From Squalus acanthias (taxonomy: Eukaryota): DNA of 64,000 bases. The stretch covers positions 107,820,001-107,884,000 of the forward strand of contig CM059431.1 of assembly GCA_030390025.1 (NCBI GenBank), written 5' to 3'. Below, in pieces: positions 1,071 to 64,000 of the stretch; position 1 is the stretch's first letter; each line of letters begins with the position of its first letter. The position numbers were made by a program, and so were the translations under genes. Below the pieces are notes generated by a model. It had not been told where the DNA came from and did not search any database. It saw nothing but the letters and a program-made list of their open reading frames with translations.

Positions 1071-1327
1071 GGTCATAAAGAAATGCAAGATCTCTTAATA
1101 AATCTGCTAACCATCAGCAGTTCATGCTGAAATAGTGCCAGTTTGAACTGGGGGTGGGGTGGAAGAGATGTGCTGTTAATAAATTGACACTTCATCTCAT
1201 TTGCTTTCTTTTGCTCTACATCTCACTCTCTTTTAAACATGATGTGGAGATGCCGGCGTTGGACTGGGGTGGACAAAAATGAGAAGTCGCACAACACCAG
1301 GTTATAGTCCAACAGATTTATTTAATT

Positions 1328-1365
1328 TTACAAGCTTTCGGAGCTATCGCTCCTTCGTCAGGTAA
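1328..1365 (-). ncRNA. Minimal hammerhead ribozyme of the PLE 3' end
   Basis: Minus strand UUAC CUGACGA A GGAGC-GAUA-GCUCC GAAA GCUU GUAA: CUGANGA and GAAA cores, 5-bp stem II, palindromic AAGCUU, 4-bp stem I. Confidence 0.88.
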
Positions 1366-1576
1366 GTTAGCAATGAGAGAATCTCCCAGAATTCACAATT
1401 TAAACCCAGACAAAATCTATTCACATTATTCGCTACAACAAAGAGCACAGCCAAGACAATGAGATGTGTCCCAGGGGGTCCAGCGTGTCAAACCACCTGC
1501 TGGCTGCATATCCTGTCAATTTGTGTTCTTGTGTTTTTAAAAAAAAACACCTGGGAAGACCGGCCATGATGTCAAG

Positions 1577-3985
1577 TCACGTTCTGTATCGTGACATGAA
1601 CCCGATATCGCGATTGAGGCCATCCTCATGAGTGCGGAACTTGGCTATCAGTTTCTGCTCTATGATTTTGCGCTGTCGTGTATCTCGAAGGCCGCCTTGG
1701 AGAACGCTTACCCGCAGATCCGAGGCTGAATGCCCCTGGCTGCTGAAGTGTTCCCCGACTGGGAGGCAACCCTCCTGCCTGGCGATTGTTGCGCGGTGTC
1801 CGTTCATACGTTGTCTCAGTGTCTGCATGGTCTCGCCGATGTACCATGCTCTGGAGCATCCTTTACTGTAACGTATCAGGTAGACAACGTTGGCCGAGTC
1901 ACATGAGTATGTACCGTGTACCTGGTGGGTAGTGTCCTCACGTGTAATGATGGTATCTGTGTCCATGATTTGGCATGTCTTGCAGAGGTTGCCGTGGCAG
2001 GGTTGTGTGGTGTCTTGGTTGCTGTTCTCCTGAAAGATGGGTAATCTGCTGCGAACGATGGTACTTTTGAGGTTAGGCGGCTGCTTGAAGGCGAGTAGTG
2101 GAGGCGTGGGGATGGCCTTAGCAAGGTGTTCGTCATCATCGATGACATGTTGAAGGCTGCGAAGAACATGGCGTAGTTTTTCCGCTCCGGGGAAGTACTG
2201 GACGACGTAGGGTACTCTGTTGGTTGTGTCCCGTGTTCGTCTTCTGAGGAGGTCTATGCGGTTTTTCGCTGTGGCCCGTCGGAACTGTCGATCGATGAGT
2301 CGAGCGTCATATCCCGTTCTTACGAGAGCGTCTTTCAGTGTCCGTAGGTGTCCATCGCGTTCCTCCTCGTCTGAGCAGATCCTGTGTATTCGCAGGGCTT
2401 GTCCATAGGGGATGGCTTCTTTAACGTGGTTAGGGTGGAAGCTGGAGAAGTGGAGCATCGTGAGGTTGTCCGTGGGCTTGCGGTAGAGTGAAGTGCTGAG
2501 GCGTCCGTCTTTGATGGAGATTCGTGTGTCCAAGAATGAAACCGATTCTGAGGAGTAGTCCATGGTGAGTTTGATGGTGGGATGGAACCTGTTGATGCTA
2601 TCGTGTAGTCCTTTCAGTGATCCTTCGCCGTGGGTCCAAAGGAAGAAGATGTCGTCGATGTATCTGGTGTACAGCGTTGGTTGGAGGTCCTGTGCAGCGA
2701 AGAAGTCTTGCTCGAACTTGTGCATGAAGATGTTGGCGTATTGGGGTGCGAATTTGGTCCCCATGGCTGTTCCGTGTGTTTGGGTGAAAAAATGGTTGTC
2801 GAAGGTGAAGACATTGTGGTCAAGGATGAAGCGGATGAGTTGTAAGATGGCGTCCGGAGATTGGCTGTTGTTGGTGTTGAGTACTGAGGCTGTCGCAGCG
2901 ATGCCGTCATTGTGGGGGATATTGGTGTAGAGTGCCGATACGTCCATTGTGACGAGGAGTGTTCCTGGTTCAACTGGTCCATGGGTGCTGAGTTTCTGCA
3001 AGAAGTCTGTAGTGTCGCGACAGAAGCTGGGGGTTCCCTGTACGATGGGTTTCAGGATGCCCTCGACGTACCCAGAGAGGTTCTCACACAGGGTTCCGTT
3101 GCCTGATACGATAGGACGTCCGGGTGTGTTGGCTTTGTGTATCTTTGGGAGGCAGTAAAAGTCTCCTACGCGGGGAGTACGTGGGATGAGAGCGCGTAGG
3201 ATGTTTTGAAGGTCTGGATCGAAGGTCTTGATCAGTCTATTGAGTTGGCGGGTGTGTTCTTTGGTCGGATCTGCGGGTAGCTGTCTGTAGTGTTCCTGGT
3301 TGTCCAGTTGTCGGTATGCTTCTTTGCAATAGTCCGTTCTGTTCTGTATGACGATGGCTCCTCCTTTGTCCGCTGGTTTGATGACGATGTTGCGGTTGGT
3401 CTTGAGTGCGTGGATGGCGTTGCGTTGTGCTCGGGTGACATTCTGGACTGTCTTGTGAGTACGGCTGATGAATCTGGCGTTGATGCATTTCCTGACAGCT
3501 TGAGCATACATGTCAAGCTTAGGGTTGCGACCCTCCGGAGGGGTCCAATTAGACTCTTTCTTCCTCGGTTGCAGCACTGCGGTTCCCTCTGTCTGCTGTT
3601 CCGGATCATTGATTGTCCCATTAGGAATGTTGCTGACATCTTGGGATTTGTGGTAGTATTCCCGGATCCTCATTCTCCTGATGAATTCCTCTGTGTCCGC
3701 CGCGAGACCGATGGGGTCCATTTTGGTGGTGGGGCAGAACTTGAGCCCTAGGGCGAGAACTTCGATTTCGTCTGGTTGAAGGGTGTGGTCCGACAGGTTG
3801 ACGATGGACTTCCCTGTGGTTGCAACCGTGGTACCGGGGGAGGCTTGGTTGTAGCTGGTGGTTACGCCGAGTTTCTCAAGCTTCCTGTTCTTGATGCGCA
3901 TGTAGGTAGCGTAGTTCCGTTGCCTCGTCTGTTTGGCGGTGTCTCGTAGCTGGTCTGCTGTGTCCTGAGCACAGGCTGAGAGCAT
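1577..3985 (-). CDS. Penelope-like reverse transcriptase + GIY-YIG endonuclease (802 aa, open frame)
   Basis: Motifs IKPADKG, LPKIHK..PGRPIVS, MDVSALYTNI, GTAMG, RYIDD, FLD, LYRKPT; Cys/His cluster CHGNLCKTC..H..C; VVYLI..WYIGET..R..H and C-terminal GLN of GIY-YIG. The true start may lie beyond the truncation. Confidence 0.93.
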   Translation of the reverse strand: MLSACAQDTADQLRDTAKQTRQRNYATYMRIKNRKLEKLGVTTSYNQASPGTTVATTGKSIVNLSDHTLQPDEIEVLALGLKFCPTTKMDPIGLAADTEEFIRRMRIREYYHKSQDVSNIPNGTINDPEQQTEGTAVLQPRKKESNWTPPEGRNPKLDMYAQAVRKCINARFISRTHKTVQNVTRAQRNAIHALKTNRNIVIKPADKGGAIVIQNRTDYCKEAYRQLDNQEHYRQLPADPTKEHTRQLNRLIKTFDPDLQNILRALIPRTPRVGDFYCLPKIHKANTPGRPIVSGNGTLCENLSGYVEGILKPIVQGTPSFCRDTTDFLQKLSTHGPVEPGTLLVTMDVSALYTNIPHNDGIAATASVLNTNNSQSPDAILQLIRFILDHNVFTFDNHFFTQTHGTAMGTKFAPQYANIFMHKFEQDFFAAQDLQPTLYTRYIDDIFFLWTHGEGSLKGLHDSINRFHPTIKLTMDYSSESVSFLDTRISIKDGRLSTSLYRKPTDNLTMLHFSSFHPNHVKEAIPYGQALRIHRICSDEEERDGHLRTLKDALVRTGYDARLIDRQFRRATAKNRIDLLRRRTRDTTNRVPYVVQYFPGAEKLRHVLRSLQHVIDDDEHLAKAIPTPPLLAFKQPPNLKSTIVRSRLPIFQENSNQDTTQPCHGNLCKTCQIMDTDTIITREDTTHQVHGTYSCDSANVVYLIRYSKGCSRAWYIGETMQTLRQRMNGHRATIARQEGCLPVGEHFSSQGHSASDLRVSVLQGGLRDTRQRKIIEQKLIAKFRTHEDGLNRDIGFMSRYRT

Positions 3986-4129
3986 GGACTCTACCTTTGC
4001 TTAACAAGATTAGGATTTTAACAAGCATTTCCTCATGACAAGGTGAGATTTTGTCAGTCAACAAAAAAATCCAAGTGAGATAGAGAGTGCAACTGTGAGG
4101 CGGGTGGTTTTTGCATATCACAGAGAAGT

Positions 4130-5215
4130 ACATAGACTATACAGCACAGAAACAGGCCATTCAGCCCAACCCGTCCATGCTGGCATTTATGCTCCACTCG
4201 AGCCTCTTCCTACCCTTCTTCATCTAACCCCATCAACATATCCTTCTATTCCTTTCTCCTTCACATGTTTATCTAGCTTCCCCTTAAATGCATCTATGCT
4301 ATTCATAGAAACATAGAAAAATAGGAGGAGTAGGCTATTCGGCCCTTCAAGCCTGCTCCGCCATTCAATATAATCATGGCTGATCCTCTGTCTCAATACC
4401 ATATTCCCACTCTCTCCCCATACCCCTTGATACCCCTTGGATCTAGAAATCTATCTGTCCCCTTCTTAAATATATTCAGTGACTTGGCCTCCACAGCCTT
4501 CTGTGGTTGAGAATTCCACAGGTTCACCACCCTCTGAGTGAAGAAATTTCTCCTCATCTCAGTCCTAAATGTCCTACCCAGTATCCTGAGACTGTGACCC
4601 CTCGTTTTAGACACCCTCAGCCAGGGGAAACATCCTCCCTGCATCCAGTCTGTCTAGCCCTGTCAGAATTTTATACGTTTCAATGAGATCCCCTCTCATT
4701 CTTCTAAACGCTAGTGAATACAGGCCTAGTCGACCCAATCTCTCCTCATACGACAGTCCTGCCATCCCAGGAATCAGTCTGGTGAACCTTCGCTGCACTC
4801 CCTCTATGGCAAGTATATCCCTTCTTAGGTAAGGAGACCAAAACTGCACACAGTACTCCAGGTGTGGTCTCACCAAGGCCCTGTATAACTGTAGTGAATA
4901 TTCGCCTCAACTACTTCTTGTGGTTCCACATTCGAACCACTATCTGGGTAAAGAAGTTTCTCCTGAATTTGCTATTGGATTACTGACTATCTTATAGTCA
5001 TGGCCCCTAGTTCTGGTCTCCCCCGCAAGTGGAAACATCTTCTCTACGTCTACCCTATCAAACCCTTTCAGAATCTTAAAGACCTCTATCAGATCATCCC
5101 GCAGCCTTCTCTTTTCTAGAGAAAAGAGCTCCAGCCTGTTCGATCTTTCCTCATGGGTATAATCTCTCAGTTCTGGTATCATTCTAGTACATCCTTTTTT
5201 GCAACTTCCCCAGTG
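4130..5215 (-). mobile_element. Two nested CR1 LINE 3' fragments (4305-4897 inside 4130-5215)
   Basis: RT C-terminal peptides VRPHLEYCVQFWSP and RRLRDDLIEVFKI; (CATAGAAA)n tail; TATTC on both sides of the inner copy. Confidence 0.88.
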
Positions 5216-5626
5216 CCTCGTGTGGCAGCATGTGATATATTTCTGTAACGAAACAAGGCTTCTCTATTCAGCCCATGGGACTCACGAGACTTACCTGGAT
5301 ATCGGGCAGATAATGTACCCACACTGGTTCATAGAAGGCACACTGGGGCTGATGACTTCAATGGAAATAATAATCGGGAGAGTTGTAAAGCGGGCTGCCG
5401 ATTTGCTATCACCTGTTTTGCACTATCGCACAAAGTCAAGACCTACCCCCATGTCTCATCACAGAAGTGGTCATTGAGGCTGTACTCAAGCAGAATATCT
5501 GGCATAAAACCCCAAAGTGTAACATGCAGTTCTACTGGCACTTTTGCATCACTGCACAGCAGCGTTAAACTAGCTTCAAAACGTGCACATTGGGCCTCTT
5601 TGACACTTGATAAAAAAAAGAAAAGA

Positions 5627-58964: not shown

Positions 58965-61740
58965 CCATCATATTATGATCACTGCTCCCCAGAGGCTCCT
59001 TTACTACAAGATTATTAATTAACCCTGTCTCATTGCACAATACTGGATCTAAAATAACAAATTCCCTAGTAGGTTCCTCGACATACTGATCCAGAAAACT
59101 ATCTTGAATGCATTCCATGAACTCTTCCTCTGCACTATTACTGCAAGTTTGGTTTGCCCAGTCTATATGAAAGTTAAAGTCCCCCATGATTACTGTATTG
59201 CACCTATTACATGCATCTCTAATTTCCTGATTTATACACTGCCCGACACAACAACTATTGTTAGGGGCCCTATAAACTACTCCCACTAATGTTTTCTGCC
59301 CCTTGTTGTTTCTTAGCTCCACCCAAACTAATTCTACATTTTGTTTTTCTGAGCCAAGATCCTTTCTCTCTATTGTCTTTATCCCCTCCTTTATTATCAG
59401 GGCTACCCGCCTCCCTCCTTTTCCATTCTGCCTGTCTCTTCTAAAAGTCAAATATCCTGGAATATTTAGTTCCCAACCTTGGTCACTCTGCAACTATGTC
59501 TCTGTAATGGCTATTAAATCAAACCCATTTATTTCTATCTGCGCCATTCATTCATCCATTTTGTTGTGAATGCTGCGTGCATTCAGATATAGTACTTTTA
59601 GCTTTAACTTTTTTCTATTTTTCCCTGTTGTCACTTTAGTCACTGGTGCACTATTACCTTTATTAATCTCTCTGTCCCTTCCTGACCCACTCTGCTTATC
59701 TTTACCCAGATCACTACTCTGCTCTACAGCCTTGACATTTTTCTTACTGCTTTTGAATTTACCCTTTCCTGAATCTTCCCACCCCCCCTTCATTAGTTTA
59801 AAACTTTATCTACCACCCTAGTTATTCAATTCTCCAGGACACTGGTCCCAGCCTGGTTTAAGTGGAGCCCATCCTAACAGAACAGCTCCCTCTTTCCCCA
59901 GTACTGATGCCAGTGTCCCATGAATCGAAACCCCTTTGTTCCACACCACTCTTTGAGCCACGCATTTAACTCTCTGATCTGTCTGTCCCTATGCCAATTT
60001 GCATGTGGCTCAGGTTACAATCCAGAGATTAATGGGCCGAAAATTGATCCCGGGACGCGAGAGTACGCACTGCGTACTCTCGCGTATTCCCACTCCAATT
60101 GCCGGTTTTCTGCATGCCCTGCGCATGCGCTGAAAACCGGCAATTGCTCTTCTGAAAAGGGGGCGGGTCCTCGGTGCATCGCGTGCGCGCTACAGGCTGC
60201 GCGCACGCTGTGCACTTCATGCTTTGGACGCGCAGGTAAGTACGGAAGATTTTGGAAATGTAAAAAGGAGCAGTAAGACCCACTTTTAAGAAGGTAAGTA
60301 GTGAATTAAGTATTTTTTTGAATTTTTTTTAACAGGTATATCTTTTTTAGAGACTTTAAAGACAGGTAAGTTTATTTTTATAACTTTTTAAAAGATTTTA
60401 AATTTTTTCAAAAATTTAATTTTTTATTTAAAATGGTTAATTTAATTAACTATACTTATTTTATTAATGTGATGGGTTTTTTTTAAATTTAATTGAGGTT
60501 TAGCTGTTATTTTGGGGGGGTGTAAGATTCATAGATTTCACAGCCGTGCTGTGAAACTTATGAATGGAAGATGGTGTGCTGCCATTGGCTCTAACTGAGT
60601 CACGTGATCCCACAGCTCGCACGAATTCACTATGCCGCTGGGATACGCAAGCACTGCCCAGCTGATCTCTAGAACATGAAGTTCGTGCGAGCTGGATTTG
60701 AAAAAGCACAAGCGAGGTGAGAGATCGCGGGAAAGCCTTACCCCCGCGGGAACAGAGCGAGATCAATTTCTGGGCCATTACCTTTGAGGTTCTGCTTTTT
60801 AATTTGGATGCTAGCTGCTCAAACTCCCTCAGCAGAACCTCATTCCTAGTTCTACCTATGTCGTTGGTTCCTACATGGACAACGACCACTGGATCCTCCC
60901 CCTCCCACTCCAAGTTCTGTTCCAGCCATGACGAGATTTCCTTAACCCTGGCACCGGGGCAGGCAACACAACCTTCGGAACTCCTGGTCACGGCTGCAGA
61001 GAACAGTATCTATTCCCCTGACTGTACTGTCCCCTACCACAGCTACATTCCTTTTCACTCCTCCCACTTGAATGGCCTCCTGCACCATGGTCAGTTTGCT
61101 CATCCACCCTGCAGTCCTTGTTCTCATCCACACAGGTAGCAAGTACTTCATACCTATTGGTCCAAGACAAGGGCTGAGGCTCCTCCATCACCACATCCTG
61201 GGTCCCCATACCTTCCTGACTCGCGGTCACAAGCTCCTGTCCCTGACCATTGACAAACTCTAAAGTACTACGTAACCTAAGGGGTGTGACTGCCTCCTGG
61301 AACAAAGTGTCCAGGTAACTCTCCCCCCTCCCTGATGCCCCGCAATGTCTGCACCTCGTACTCCAGCTCAACAACTCTGAGCCGAAGTTCCTCGAGCTGC
61401 AGACACTTACCGCAGATGTGGTTGCTCGGGATCGCGATGCTCCCCACAAACTCCCACATGCTGCAGTGATGGCACACCGCCTGCCCTGCCTATCTAACCT
61501 TCTTTATTTTTTTGATTGGTTAATCAATAATTTTTTTCTCAATTATTTTAGTTATTTTACTTAATTGGTTTATCTAGTTTTAATTACTAATGTGATAAAG
61601 TAAAGTTATAGCAATTTACAGTTTCTTAGCTAGCTTAGAGACTAAAAAAACTGTAATACTCAGCAACCAATCACCTACATGCTGTCCTGTGATGTCACTC
61701 CTTGATTTTTCTGTTCTCGCGCTCTTTATTGCGTTGATCC
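58965..61740 (-). mobile_element. CR1 LINE 5' half (5' UTR, ORF1, endonuclease)
   Basis: CHHCSMWE..HICGKC; GDSTVRG; VHVGTND; YLNARSI; VYRAP; GDFN; SDH; homologous to 11937-13830. Confidence 0.92.
60034..60776. mobile_element. Harbinger MITE inserted in CR1 ORF1
   Basis: TIRs GGGCCGAAAATT / AATTTCTGGGCC; flanks AAT/ATT; inverse copy of the 25243-26005 family. Confidence 0.88.
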
Positions 61741-61742
61741 AG

Positions 61743-63365
61743 CCCCTCTCGCTGCCCCTCTCGCTGTTCCTCTCGCTGCCCCTCTCACGCTCCTCTCGTC
61801 CCTCCTCTCGCTGCCCCTCTCGCTGCCCCTCTCGCTGTTCCTCTCGCTGCCCCTCTCACGCTCCTCTCGTCCCTCCTCTCGCTGCCCCTCTCGCTGTTCC
61901 TCTCGCTGCCCCTCTCGCTGTTCCTCTCGCTGCCCCTCTCGCTGCCCCTCTCGCGCTCCTCTCGCGCTCCTCTCGCGCTCCTCTCGCGCTCCTCTGGCTG
62001 CCCCTCTCGCTGCCCCTCTCGCTGCTCCTCTCGCGCTCCTCTCGCGCTCCTCTTGCTGCCCCTCTCGCTGCTCCTCTCGCTGCCCCTCTCGCTGCTCCTC
62101 TCGCTGCCCCTCTCGCTGCTCCTCTCGCTGCCCCTCTCGCGCTCCTCTCGCTGCCCCTCTCGCTGCCCCTCTCGCTGCCCCTCTCGCTGCCCCCTCTCGC
62201 TGCCCCTCTCGCTGCCCCTCTCGCTGCCCCCTCGCTGCTCCTCTCGCTGCCCCCTCTCGCTGCCCCTCTCGCTGCCCCCTCGCTGCTCCTCTCGCTGCCC
62301 CTCTCGCTGCCCCTCTCGCTGCCCCTCTCGCTGCCCCTCTCGCTGCCCCCTCTCGCTGCTCCTCTCGCTGCCCCTCTCGCCGCTCCTCTCGCTGCTCCTC
62401 TCGCTGCCCCTCTCGCTGCTCCTCTCGCTGCCCCTCTCGCTGCCCCTCTCGCTGCCCCTCTCGCTGCCCCTCTCGCTGCCCCCTCGCTGCTCCTCTCGCT
62501 GCCCCCTCTCGCTGCCCCTCTCGCTGCCCCCTCGCTGCTCCTCTCGCTGCCCCTCTCGCTGCCCCTCTCGCTGCCCCTCTCGCTGCCCCTCTCGCTGCCC
62601 CCTCTCGCTGCTCCTCTCGCTGCCCCTCTCGCCGCTCCTCTCGCTGCTCCTCTCGCTGCCCCTCTCGCTGCTCCTCTCGCTGCCCCTCTCGCTGCTCCTC
62701 TCGCTGCTCCTCTCGCTGCCCCTCTCGCTGCTCCTCTCGCTGCTCCTCTCGCTGCCCCTCTCGCTGCTCCTCTCGCTGCCCCTCTCGCTGCTCCTCTCGC
62801 TGCTCCTCTCGCTGCCCCTCTCGCTGCTCCTCTCGCTGCTCCTCTCGCGCTCCTCTCGCTGCCCCTCTCGCTGCTCCTCTCGCTGCTCCTCTCGCTGCCC
62901 CTCTCGCTGCTCCTCTCGCTGCCCCTCTCGCTGCCCCTCTCGCTGCCCCCTCTCGCTGCCCCTCTCGCTGCCCCCTCGCTGCTCCTCTCGCTGCCCCTCT
63001 CGCTGCCCCTCTCGCTGCTCCTCTCGCTGCCCCTCTCGCTGCCCCCTCTCGCTGCCCCTCTCGCTGCCCCTCTCGCTGCTCCTCTCGCTGCCCCTCTCGC
63101 TGCCCCTCTCGCTGCTCCTCTCGCTGCCCCTCTCGCCGCCCCTCTCGCCGCCCCTCTCGCCGCTCCTCTCGCCACTGCTCTCACTGCCCCTCTCGCTGCC
63201 CCTCTCGCTGCTCCTCTCGCTGCCCCTCTCGCTGCCCCTCTCGCTGCTCCTCTCGCTGCCCCTCTCGCTGCCCCTCTCGCTGCCCCTCTCGCTGCCCCCT
63301 CTCGCTGCCCCTCTCGCTGCTCCTCTCGCTGCTCCTCTCGCTGCTCCTCTCGCTGCTCCTCTTGC
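61743..63365. repeat. 12-bp minisatellite (CYCCTCTCGCTG)n, about 1.6 kb
   Basis: Directly visible unit with 10- and 13-bp variants. Confidence 0.97.
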
Positions 63366-63517
63366 CACTGCTCTCACGCTCATTATAGCGCCGCTGATCC
63401 TGCTCCACTCACTGTTCCTCTCGCCACTGCTCTCGCGCTCTCCACCTCTCTCTCCTCCTTTAAGACGCTCCTTAAAACCTACCTCTTTGACCAATCTTTT
63501 AGTCACCTGTCTTAATT

Positions 63518-64000
63518 GGCCCAGAAATTCAGGTCGGAGGCTTCCCGCGGGTGCAAGCCCCCGACCTGCACTTACATAGCGTGCCTGCCGTTGTGCTGTG
63601 GGCCCGCGTGGGATTCCGATCCTGGGCCTCCTCCAGCTGCCGGTGTGCAGTGCTCGCATATCCCAGCGGCGCAGTTAGTTCGAAGCGTCCCCTGTGATCA
63701 CGTGGGCCATGGGGAGCCAATCGGAGCAGGGAATCGCCATTCATAGATTTGACAAAAGTGAGAAGTCGCACAACACCAGGTTATAGTCCAACAGTTTTAT
63801 TTGAAATCACAAGCTTTCGGAGCGGCTGCTCCTTCGTCAGGTGAAGTGAAGAAATATTGGTAAAGTAAAATAATAAACCTGTGGAAAAAATGTTTTAATT
63901 TTACTTAATTCACCACTTACCTTGTTAAAAGCAGGCCTTGCGCCTGCTTTTTCCCCCGCGCAGCTGCTAGGGACTTACCCGCACGGAGAAACCTGTAAAA
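63518..64000. mobile_element. Harbinger MITE running off the window, containing a PLE 3'-end insert
   Basis: Starts GGCCCAGAAATT; similar to the 27898 and 34020 families. Confidence 0.8.
63807..63844 (-). ncRNA. Solo PLE-type minimal hammerhead ribozyme
   Basis: Minus strand UCAC CUGACGA A GGAGC-AGCC-GCUCC GAAA GCUU GUGA, followed by AATAAA and the same 3' sequence as 1282-1322. Confidence 0.86.

Follow-up and report, generated by a model that had tools for sequence, protein, structure and literature searches.

A candidate minimal hammerhead ribozyme kept across subfamilies of a high-copy Neptune-type retroelement in Squalus acanthias

Minimal hammerhead ribozymes (min-HHRs) reside in the terminal repeats of metazoan Penelope-like elements (PLEs), including the fish elements Xena, Poseidon and Neptune (Cervera and de la Pena 2014, PMC4209133; this source and the three cited below were available in part, and what is said of them refers to those parts). 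Published min-HHRs do not cleave as monomers and cleave poorly even as dimers (PMC4209133), and similarly eight of nine frog retrozyme dimers did not cut (bioRxiv 10.64898/2026.07.22.740005). For the Poseidon element PAc of Anolis carolinensis, uncut RNA is described as the main template, with cleavage needing protein (Frangieh et al. 2024, PMC11167929), and Naiads proliferate although they lack hammerheads (Craig et al. 2021, PMC8557442); what Penelope hammerheads do for their elements is considered still open (PMC8557442, PMC11167929). No cartilaginous fish is named in the passages of PMC4209133 consulted, and the preprint on non-LTR retrozymes sampled one cartilaginous fish. Literature searches on Penelope hammerheads of sharks and other cartilaginous fish returned no description of the present family.

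Here we analysed 64,000 nt of the S. acanthias genome (GCA_030390025.1, contig CM059431.1, positions 107,820,001 to 107,884,000; hereafter the window). Scanning both strands of the window for the core plus stem II returned only two motifs, copies 1 and 2, both on the minus strand and at the positions given in a preliminary description of this DNA, which had also listed CUGACGA, GAAA, stem II and the differences in loop II and stem I correctly (Table 1). Its layout of core and stems stands; the unpaired A between A9 and G10.1 had been overlooked. Copy 2 carries stem I UCAC/GUGA and loop AGCC and is identical to copy 1 in the remainder of its layout. By hammerhead numbering, we take the cut of copy 1 to fall between 1332 and 1331. 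The motif shares with PLE minimal hammerheads the CUGANGA...GAAA...UH core, a helix I of 4-5 bp, a helix II with G10.1-C11.1, pair-keeping changes, the unpaired base between 9 and 10.1, a palindromic 15.1-16.1 with no helix III, and a position in terminal repeats flanking a PLE ORF. Rfam gave no hammerhead match at E<=1 for the whole window or at E<=10 for 1270-1430, and a canonical Rfam hammerhead family was rejected as there was no model match. A non-LTR retrozyme was also rejected: a head-to-tail non-coding array is absent, and both window copies are lone.

Table 1 Features of the two hammerhead copies and their host elements in the window.
Feature	Position	Strand	Basis or remark
5'-truncated Neptune-type Penelope-like element (subfamily A), single unit, upstream terminal repeat absent	1238..3997	minus	
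RT + GIY-YIG ORF, about 806/892 codons	1577..3997	minus	Pfam RVT_1; nuclease from motif only
CX4CxxC linker CHGNLCKTC	1973..1999	minus	compared with the description in PMC8557442 (text available in part)
Private Tyr at Cys of nuclease CCHH motif	1868..1870	minus	Cys in 4/4 compared copies
Putative decayed remnant just after stop codon, aligning with the subfamily B relic	1550..1576	minus	weak alignment
Minimal type I hammerhead, copy 1	1328..1365	minus	core-plus-stem-II scan
Copy 1 stem I	1365-1362/1331-1328	minus	UUAC/GUAA
Copy 1 core CUGACGA	1361-1355	minus	
Copy 1 extra A	1354	minus	
Copy 1 stem II GGAGC/GCUCC, loop GAUA	1353-1349/1344-1340	minus	
Copy 1 GAAA	1339-1336	minus	
Copy 1 AGCU	1336-1333	minus	
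Copy 1 H17	1332	minus	
94-nt stretch 3' of predicted cut: 91-nt leader + next tandem unit's ATG (1240-1238)	1238..1331	minus	
Insertion ends in that stretch	short about 1272-1279; long about 1238	minus	
Minimal hammerhead, copy 2, subfamily B	63807..63844	minus	core-plus-stem-II scan
About 105-nt 5'-truncated independent stub, subfamily B, from just 5' of hammerhead to short 3' end	63751..63856	minus	

The element carrying copy 1 begins at about 3997, without the first ~86 of 892 codons, and terminates at the ATG 1240-1238. Its open frame (1577-4000, minus strand) encodes 807 residues and matches Pfam RVT_1 (E 2e-8); a Pfam search of this ORF did not detect the C-terminal nuclease domain, whose GIY-YIG and CCHH motifs are visible by inspection. 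The element thus has the single ORF of Neptune, with RT followed by a C-terminal GIY-YIG with CCHH, the nuclease being recognised by its visible motifs only. A CX2-5CxxC linker before the nuclease marks Neptune and Nematis (PMC8557442). Judged by this RT/GIY-YIG layout and the linker, which is common to Nematis, the element is of Neptune type. The last 385 nt, from the ORF end through the motif, match at 98-100% over nearly their whole length in all 40 scored candidates (of 1,155), so that motif and ORF form one young element. No clear target duplication was seen around the window element. Upstream of it, at 4100-5300, lie high-copy repeat fragments with many relatives in the window. Lone, truncated and partnerless in cis, the two window copies are probably inert.

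Genome-wide, an exact core pattern, tighter than that of the window scan, has 47,357 matches (23,776 + 23,581) in 3.71 Gb as opposed to none for the reversed control, and its occurrence is therefore not a matter of chance. A tail anchor has at least 76,231 matches (control 0). Motif density is about one per 78 kb, and two motifs in a 64-kb window are thus what this density predicts. On its sequence and abundance, the motif is an ordinary member of the known Penelope-element minimal hammerhead class, one of tens of thousands in this genome.

In four of five fetched tandem loci, two motifs occur on the same strand at a spacing of 3,019-3,050 nt. Among 20 loci selected for the 5' part of the ORF, the distance from the predicted cut to the following ATG is 91 nt in 11 and 90 nt in one more. 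In partial-tandem source copies, two motifs ~3.0 kb apart bracket one ORF. The motif had been described as marking the element's 3' end, which holds for the window copy but is incomplete, as tandem copies carry it as the 5' leader of the next ORF. The 3' ends of 172 copies are bimodal relative to the cut, with 91 at +53 to +60 and 69 at +88 to +100. An inverted partner with its own motif is present in 14 of 30 loci, typically with one long and one short end and a target duplication. Also, 35 of the 100 first-listed junctions at +1 are, by eye, inverted insertions joined through the 4-nt complementarity of stem I (for example at loci L347, L352, L353, L359, L370 and L372). The bimodal 3'-end structure of the copies corresponds to the known 30-40 nt tail (PMC8557442), which in the anole element is explained by two internal RT start sites (PMC11167929). 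The first 100 matches of the tail anchor gave 97 distinct copies, of which 95 extend across the cut site and 80 retain the core in full; the RNA that was copied was therefore mostly uncut or rejoined.

Variation among genomic copies was tallied by locus after parsing 149 of 172 copies, some of them wrongly at inversion junctions. The third stem I pair is C-G in 67 tallies, U-A in 25, U-G in 9, C-A in 1, G-G in 5 and A-G in 4, and many of the nine G-G and A-G cases sit at inversion junctions. Similarly, the closing pair of stem II is C-G in 93, U-A in 7, U-G in 4 and something else in 5. The unpaired base between A9 and G10.1 is A in 101 of 104 tallies, and N7 occurs as all four bases. A core lineage with U4C (nine locus tallies) has U-A as its stem II closing pair (L194, L227, L208). 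AGCU is kept in 106 of 106 tallies, while position 17 is U in 87, C in 19 and G in none of 106; because position 17 varies between U and C, a dimer helix can rest only on AGCU. The AGCU part of the previously proposed AAGCUU palindrome therefore survives and its outer bases do not, and the triplet preceding the cut, given earlier as CUU, may be CUU or CUC.

Compared over 96 nt, the two window copies show 13 differences, four of them in loop II and only two in the 18 stem positions. These two are pairing partners, the third stem I pair being U-A in copy 1 and C-G in copy 2. The covariation claimed earlier from the copy 62 kb away is thus a real change, but thin by itself, since two differing stem positions would be partners by chance about 1 time in 17. 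A broader set comprised 20 haplotypes, namely those of the two window copies and 18 others, each seen at more than one locus. Here, 178 of 180 stem cells are paired, two pairs are changed on both sides with the U-G intermediate present, and the terminal stem I pair is broken in two haplotypes. C3, G5, A6, G8, A9, G12, A13, A14, A15.1, G15.2, C16.2 and U16.1 are invariant, and changes are confined to N7, H17, loop II, the one U4C lineage and pair-keeping stem positions. In shuffle tests on these haplotypes, which are related to one another, none of 500 shuffles reached the covariation score, but 86 of 500 had as many double-changed pairs and 497 of 500 as many pair types.

Core invariance by itself proves little, because conservation is equally high in the flanking tail. 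In a second Penelope family, at 30-45% protein identity, stem I is a different one and the palindrome is swapped to ACGU. When run on 384 kb, a covariance model built from the 20 haplotypes found the same lineage only, with seven strong matches, two of them by construction, and recovered no motif of the ACGU family in these 384 kb. The pair-keeping changes, the second family and the decay of the relic described below suggest that a catalytic core has been under selection in the source elements. The earlier proposal that the fold is under selection is supported between subfamilies, the evidence coming from many subfamilies and not from the two window copies alone.

Copy 2 belongs to subfamily B, a sister subfamily with a diverged 3' UTR. 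We rejected the reading of copy 2 as a fixed-length mini-element, as its relatives continue into the full 3' UTR and the ORF end. Near copy 2, the window also contains a low-complexity, C/T-rich tandem array of ~1.7 kb with units of roughly 12 nt (61700-63440). In all 15 listed subfamily B loci (L032:1185-1250, L152, L042, L085 and 11 more), the stop codon is immediately followed by a relic hammerhead and tail, which lie 275-369 nt upstream of the intact motif. The relic aligns with the motif and tail of the ACGU family (score 74, compared with a shuffled maximum of 35). It has lost A9, A14 and A15.1, which the downstream motif retains, and in some subfamilies core C3 as well. This arrangement suggests that the lineage replaced its terminal repeat.

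As for activity, the monomer motif cannot form helix III, and the computed energy of the AGCU duplex is only -2.5 kcal/mol. When copy 1 is folded together with 60 nt of flanking sequence on either side, the pairing probability of stem I is 0.01-0.02, so that it is mostly open, and firm folding is confined to stem II. On the combined sequence evidence, the motif is probably the min-HHR of a high-copy Neptune-type retroelement, kept across subfamilies, and is predicted to be a slow, conditional self-cutter. For cutting, dimer formation and their purpose, we infer the following route. Tandem transcripts would be trimmed 91 nt before the ORF start only upon pairing of two motifs through AGCU or with the help of a protein, giving units with a 91-nt leader. 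Reverse transcription would start at two internal positions, about 55 and 93 nt 3' of the cut site, as the two insertion ends suggest, and would cross that site on uncut or rejoined RNA, copying the motif into each new insertion. The two copies in the window would be by-products of such read-through insertion.

Several of these observations also bear on an unlikely alternative, in which the fold is selected as a structural signal (for protein binding, as a translation leader or for RT positioning) and cleavage is vestigial. Read-through in 95 of 97 copies and the firm folding of stem II alone are consistent with it, as are reports on the anole element that core mutants had no effect on insertion in vitro and that RNA-seq ends at the site were not found (PMC11167929, in the text available). 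A mere hairpin, however, would not need variation to avoid the catalytic positions together with G at 17 (0/106), and the anole motif does cut, with C3/G8 rescue (PMC11167929).

A search for genomic traces of cutting bears on a second alternative, which we regard as improbable, namely that the RNA is cut efficiently and then ligated into circles or bridged by a template jump, so that cDNA crosses the site despite the cut. Such rejoining has been proposed (PMC4209133) and explains both read-through and partial tandems. If cut RNA served as template, insertions should accumulate with their 5' ends at +1. Between -4 and +9 we found 99 junctions, and after dropping eight indels, 11 of 91 lie at +1 where 5.3 are expected (P 0.016, for one position), a small excess of the kind that rejoining predicts. 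Genome-wide counts at -1, +1, +2 and +3 are 108, 272, 222 and 197, giving observed shares of 0.14, 0.34, 0.28 and 0.25 compared with 0.18, 0.31, 0.26 and 0.26 under a microhomology-aware null. Most of the +1 excess is thus explained, because complementarity within stem I also gives rise to junctions at this base, which argues against rejoining. The RNA motif in this way shapes DNA insertion structure through the complementarity of stem I. Junctions without exact microhomology seemed enriched at +1, with 17 of 30 there and six of 30 rows at +2, but the split was made post hoc and several rows were misclassified. The cleanest class, junctions to unrelated flank, also speaks against rejoining, with 8-10 of 62 at +1 against 4.7 expected (12 of the 62 classed by eye), none of 30 rows at +2 and six of 30 at +3 (23/100 by eye); for this class P is 0.02-0.09 against 7.5%, and enrichment is at most 2-fold.

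The second family likewise counts against rejoining, as it showed no +1 peak by eye in the about 24 rows left, the test having been swamped by MITE insertions. Exactly at this family's GTT/ATT cleavage triplet, we observed elements of about 750-860 bp that have terminal inverted repeats and 3-bp duplications and are presumably PIF/Harbinger-like. Among the first 30 loci of a pattern with 2,074 matches, 17 carry such an element (L404-L432, e.g. L408, L416, L421 and L426), with both sides confirmed in six. These elements have a strong DNA-level target preference for the cleavage triplet of the second family.

A third alternative, very improbable, casts the motif as a passenger, neutral or parasitic, that is copied for its position next to the start of reverse transcription. 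PMC8557442 suggests this as a possibility, and it would fit every insertion carrying this end regardless of use, but changes across subfamilies keep the pairs, and the upstream relic decayed while this motif did not.

The preferred reading, a slow and conditional self-cutter, could be extended to a rather unlikely but testable statement: some 0.1-0.5% of the ~100,000 copies may begin at +1 from RNA cut in the germline, and the lineage may have replaced an older, now relic hammerhead. If true, this would be genomic evidence that Penelope hammerheads cut in vivo and are required, which we did not find in the text consulted of the sources cited here. The window copy itself leaves the role of Penelope hammerheads unchanged. 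The family is useful as material, being young, with intact 892-codon tandem copies and natural variants at N7, U4, H17 and both stems; it also offers an internal control, the dead relic carried by the same element, and its insertions are numerous enough to test for cutting in vivo across the whole genome.

Compared with the min-HHRs of PMC4209133, the motif is likewise of type I, with no helix III and a short helix I (4 bp here), and shares the extra base between 9 and 10.1, G10.1-C11.1, the palindromic 15.2-16.2, thousands of lone copies, and sequence families with compensatory changes. It differs in its stem II of 5 bp, as opposed to 7-8 bp in the Schistosoma families, and in its at least 47,357 copies, compared with about 4,000 in coelacanth and 9,000 in Xenopus. 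Non-LTR retrozymes (bioRxiv 10.64898/2026.07.22.740005) also have a type I hammerhead derived from Penelope terminal repeats, but are tandem non-coding arrays, whereas the window copies are lone ends of coding elements. With the EN+ Penelope-like insertions of PMC8557442, the family shares partial tandems, inverted 5'-truncated copies and a 30-40 bp tail, and no differences were seen from the text available. Finally, as in PAc (PMC11167929), the hammerhead lies where repeat and ORF meet, the 30-40 nt tail is here probably delimited by two internal start sites, and the template is mostly uncut or rejoined; whereas PAc is a Poseidon element cut 26 nt inside the ORF, the element here is of Neptune type, with its predicted cut 91 nt before the ATG and its long end at the ATG.
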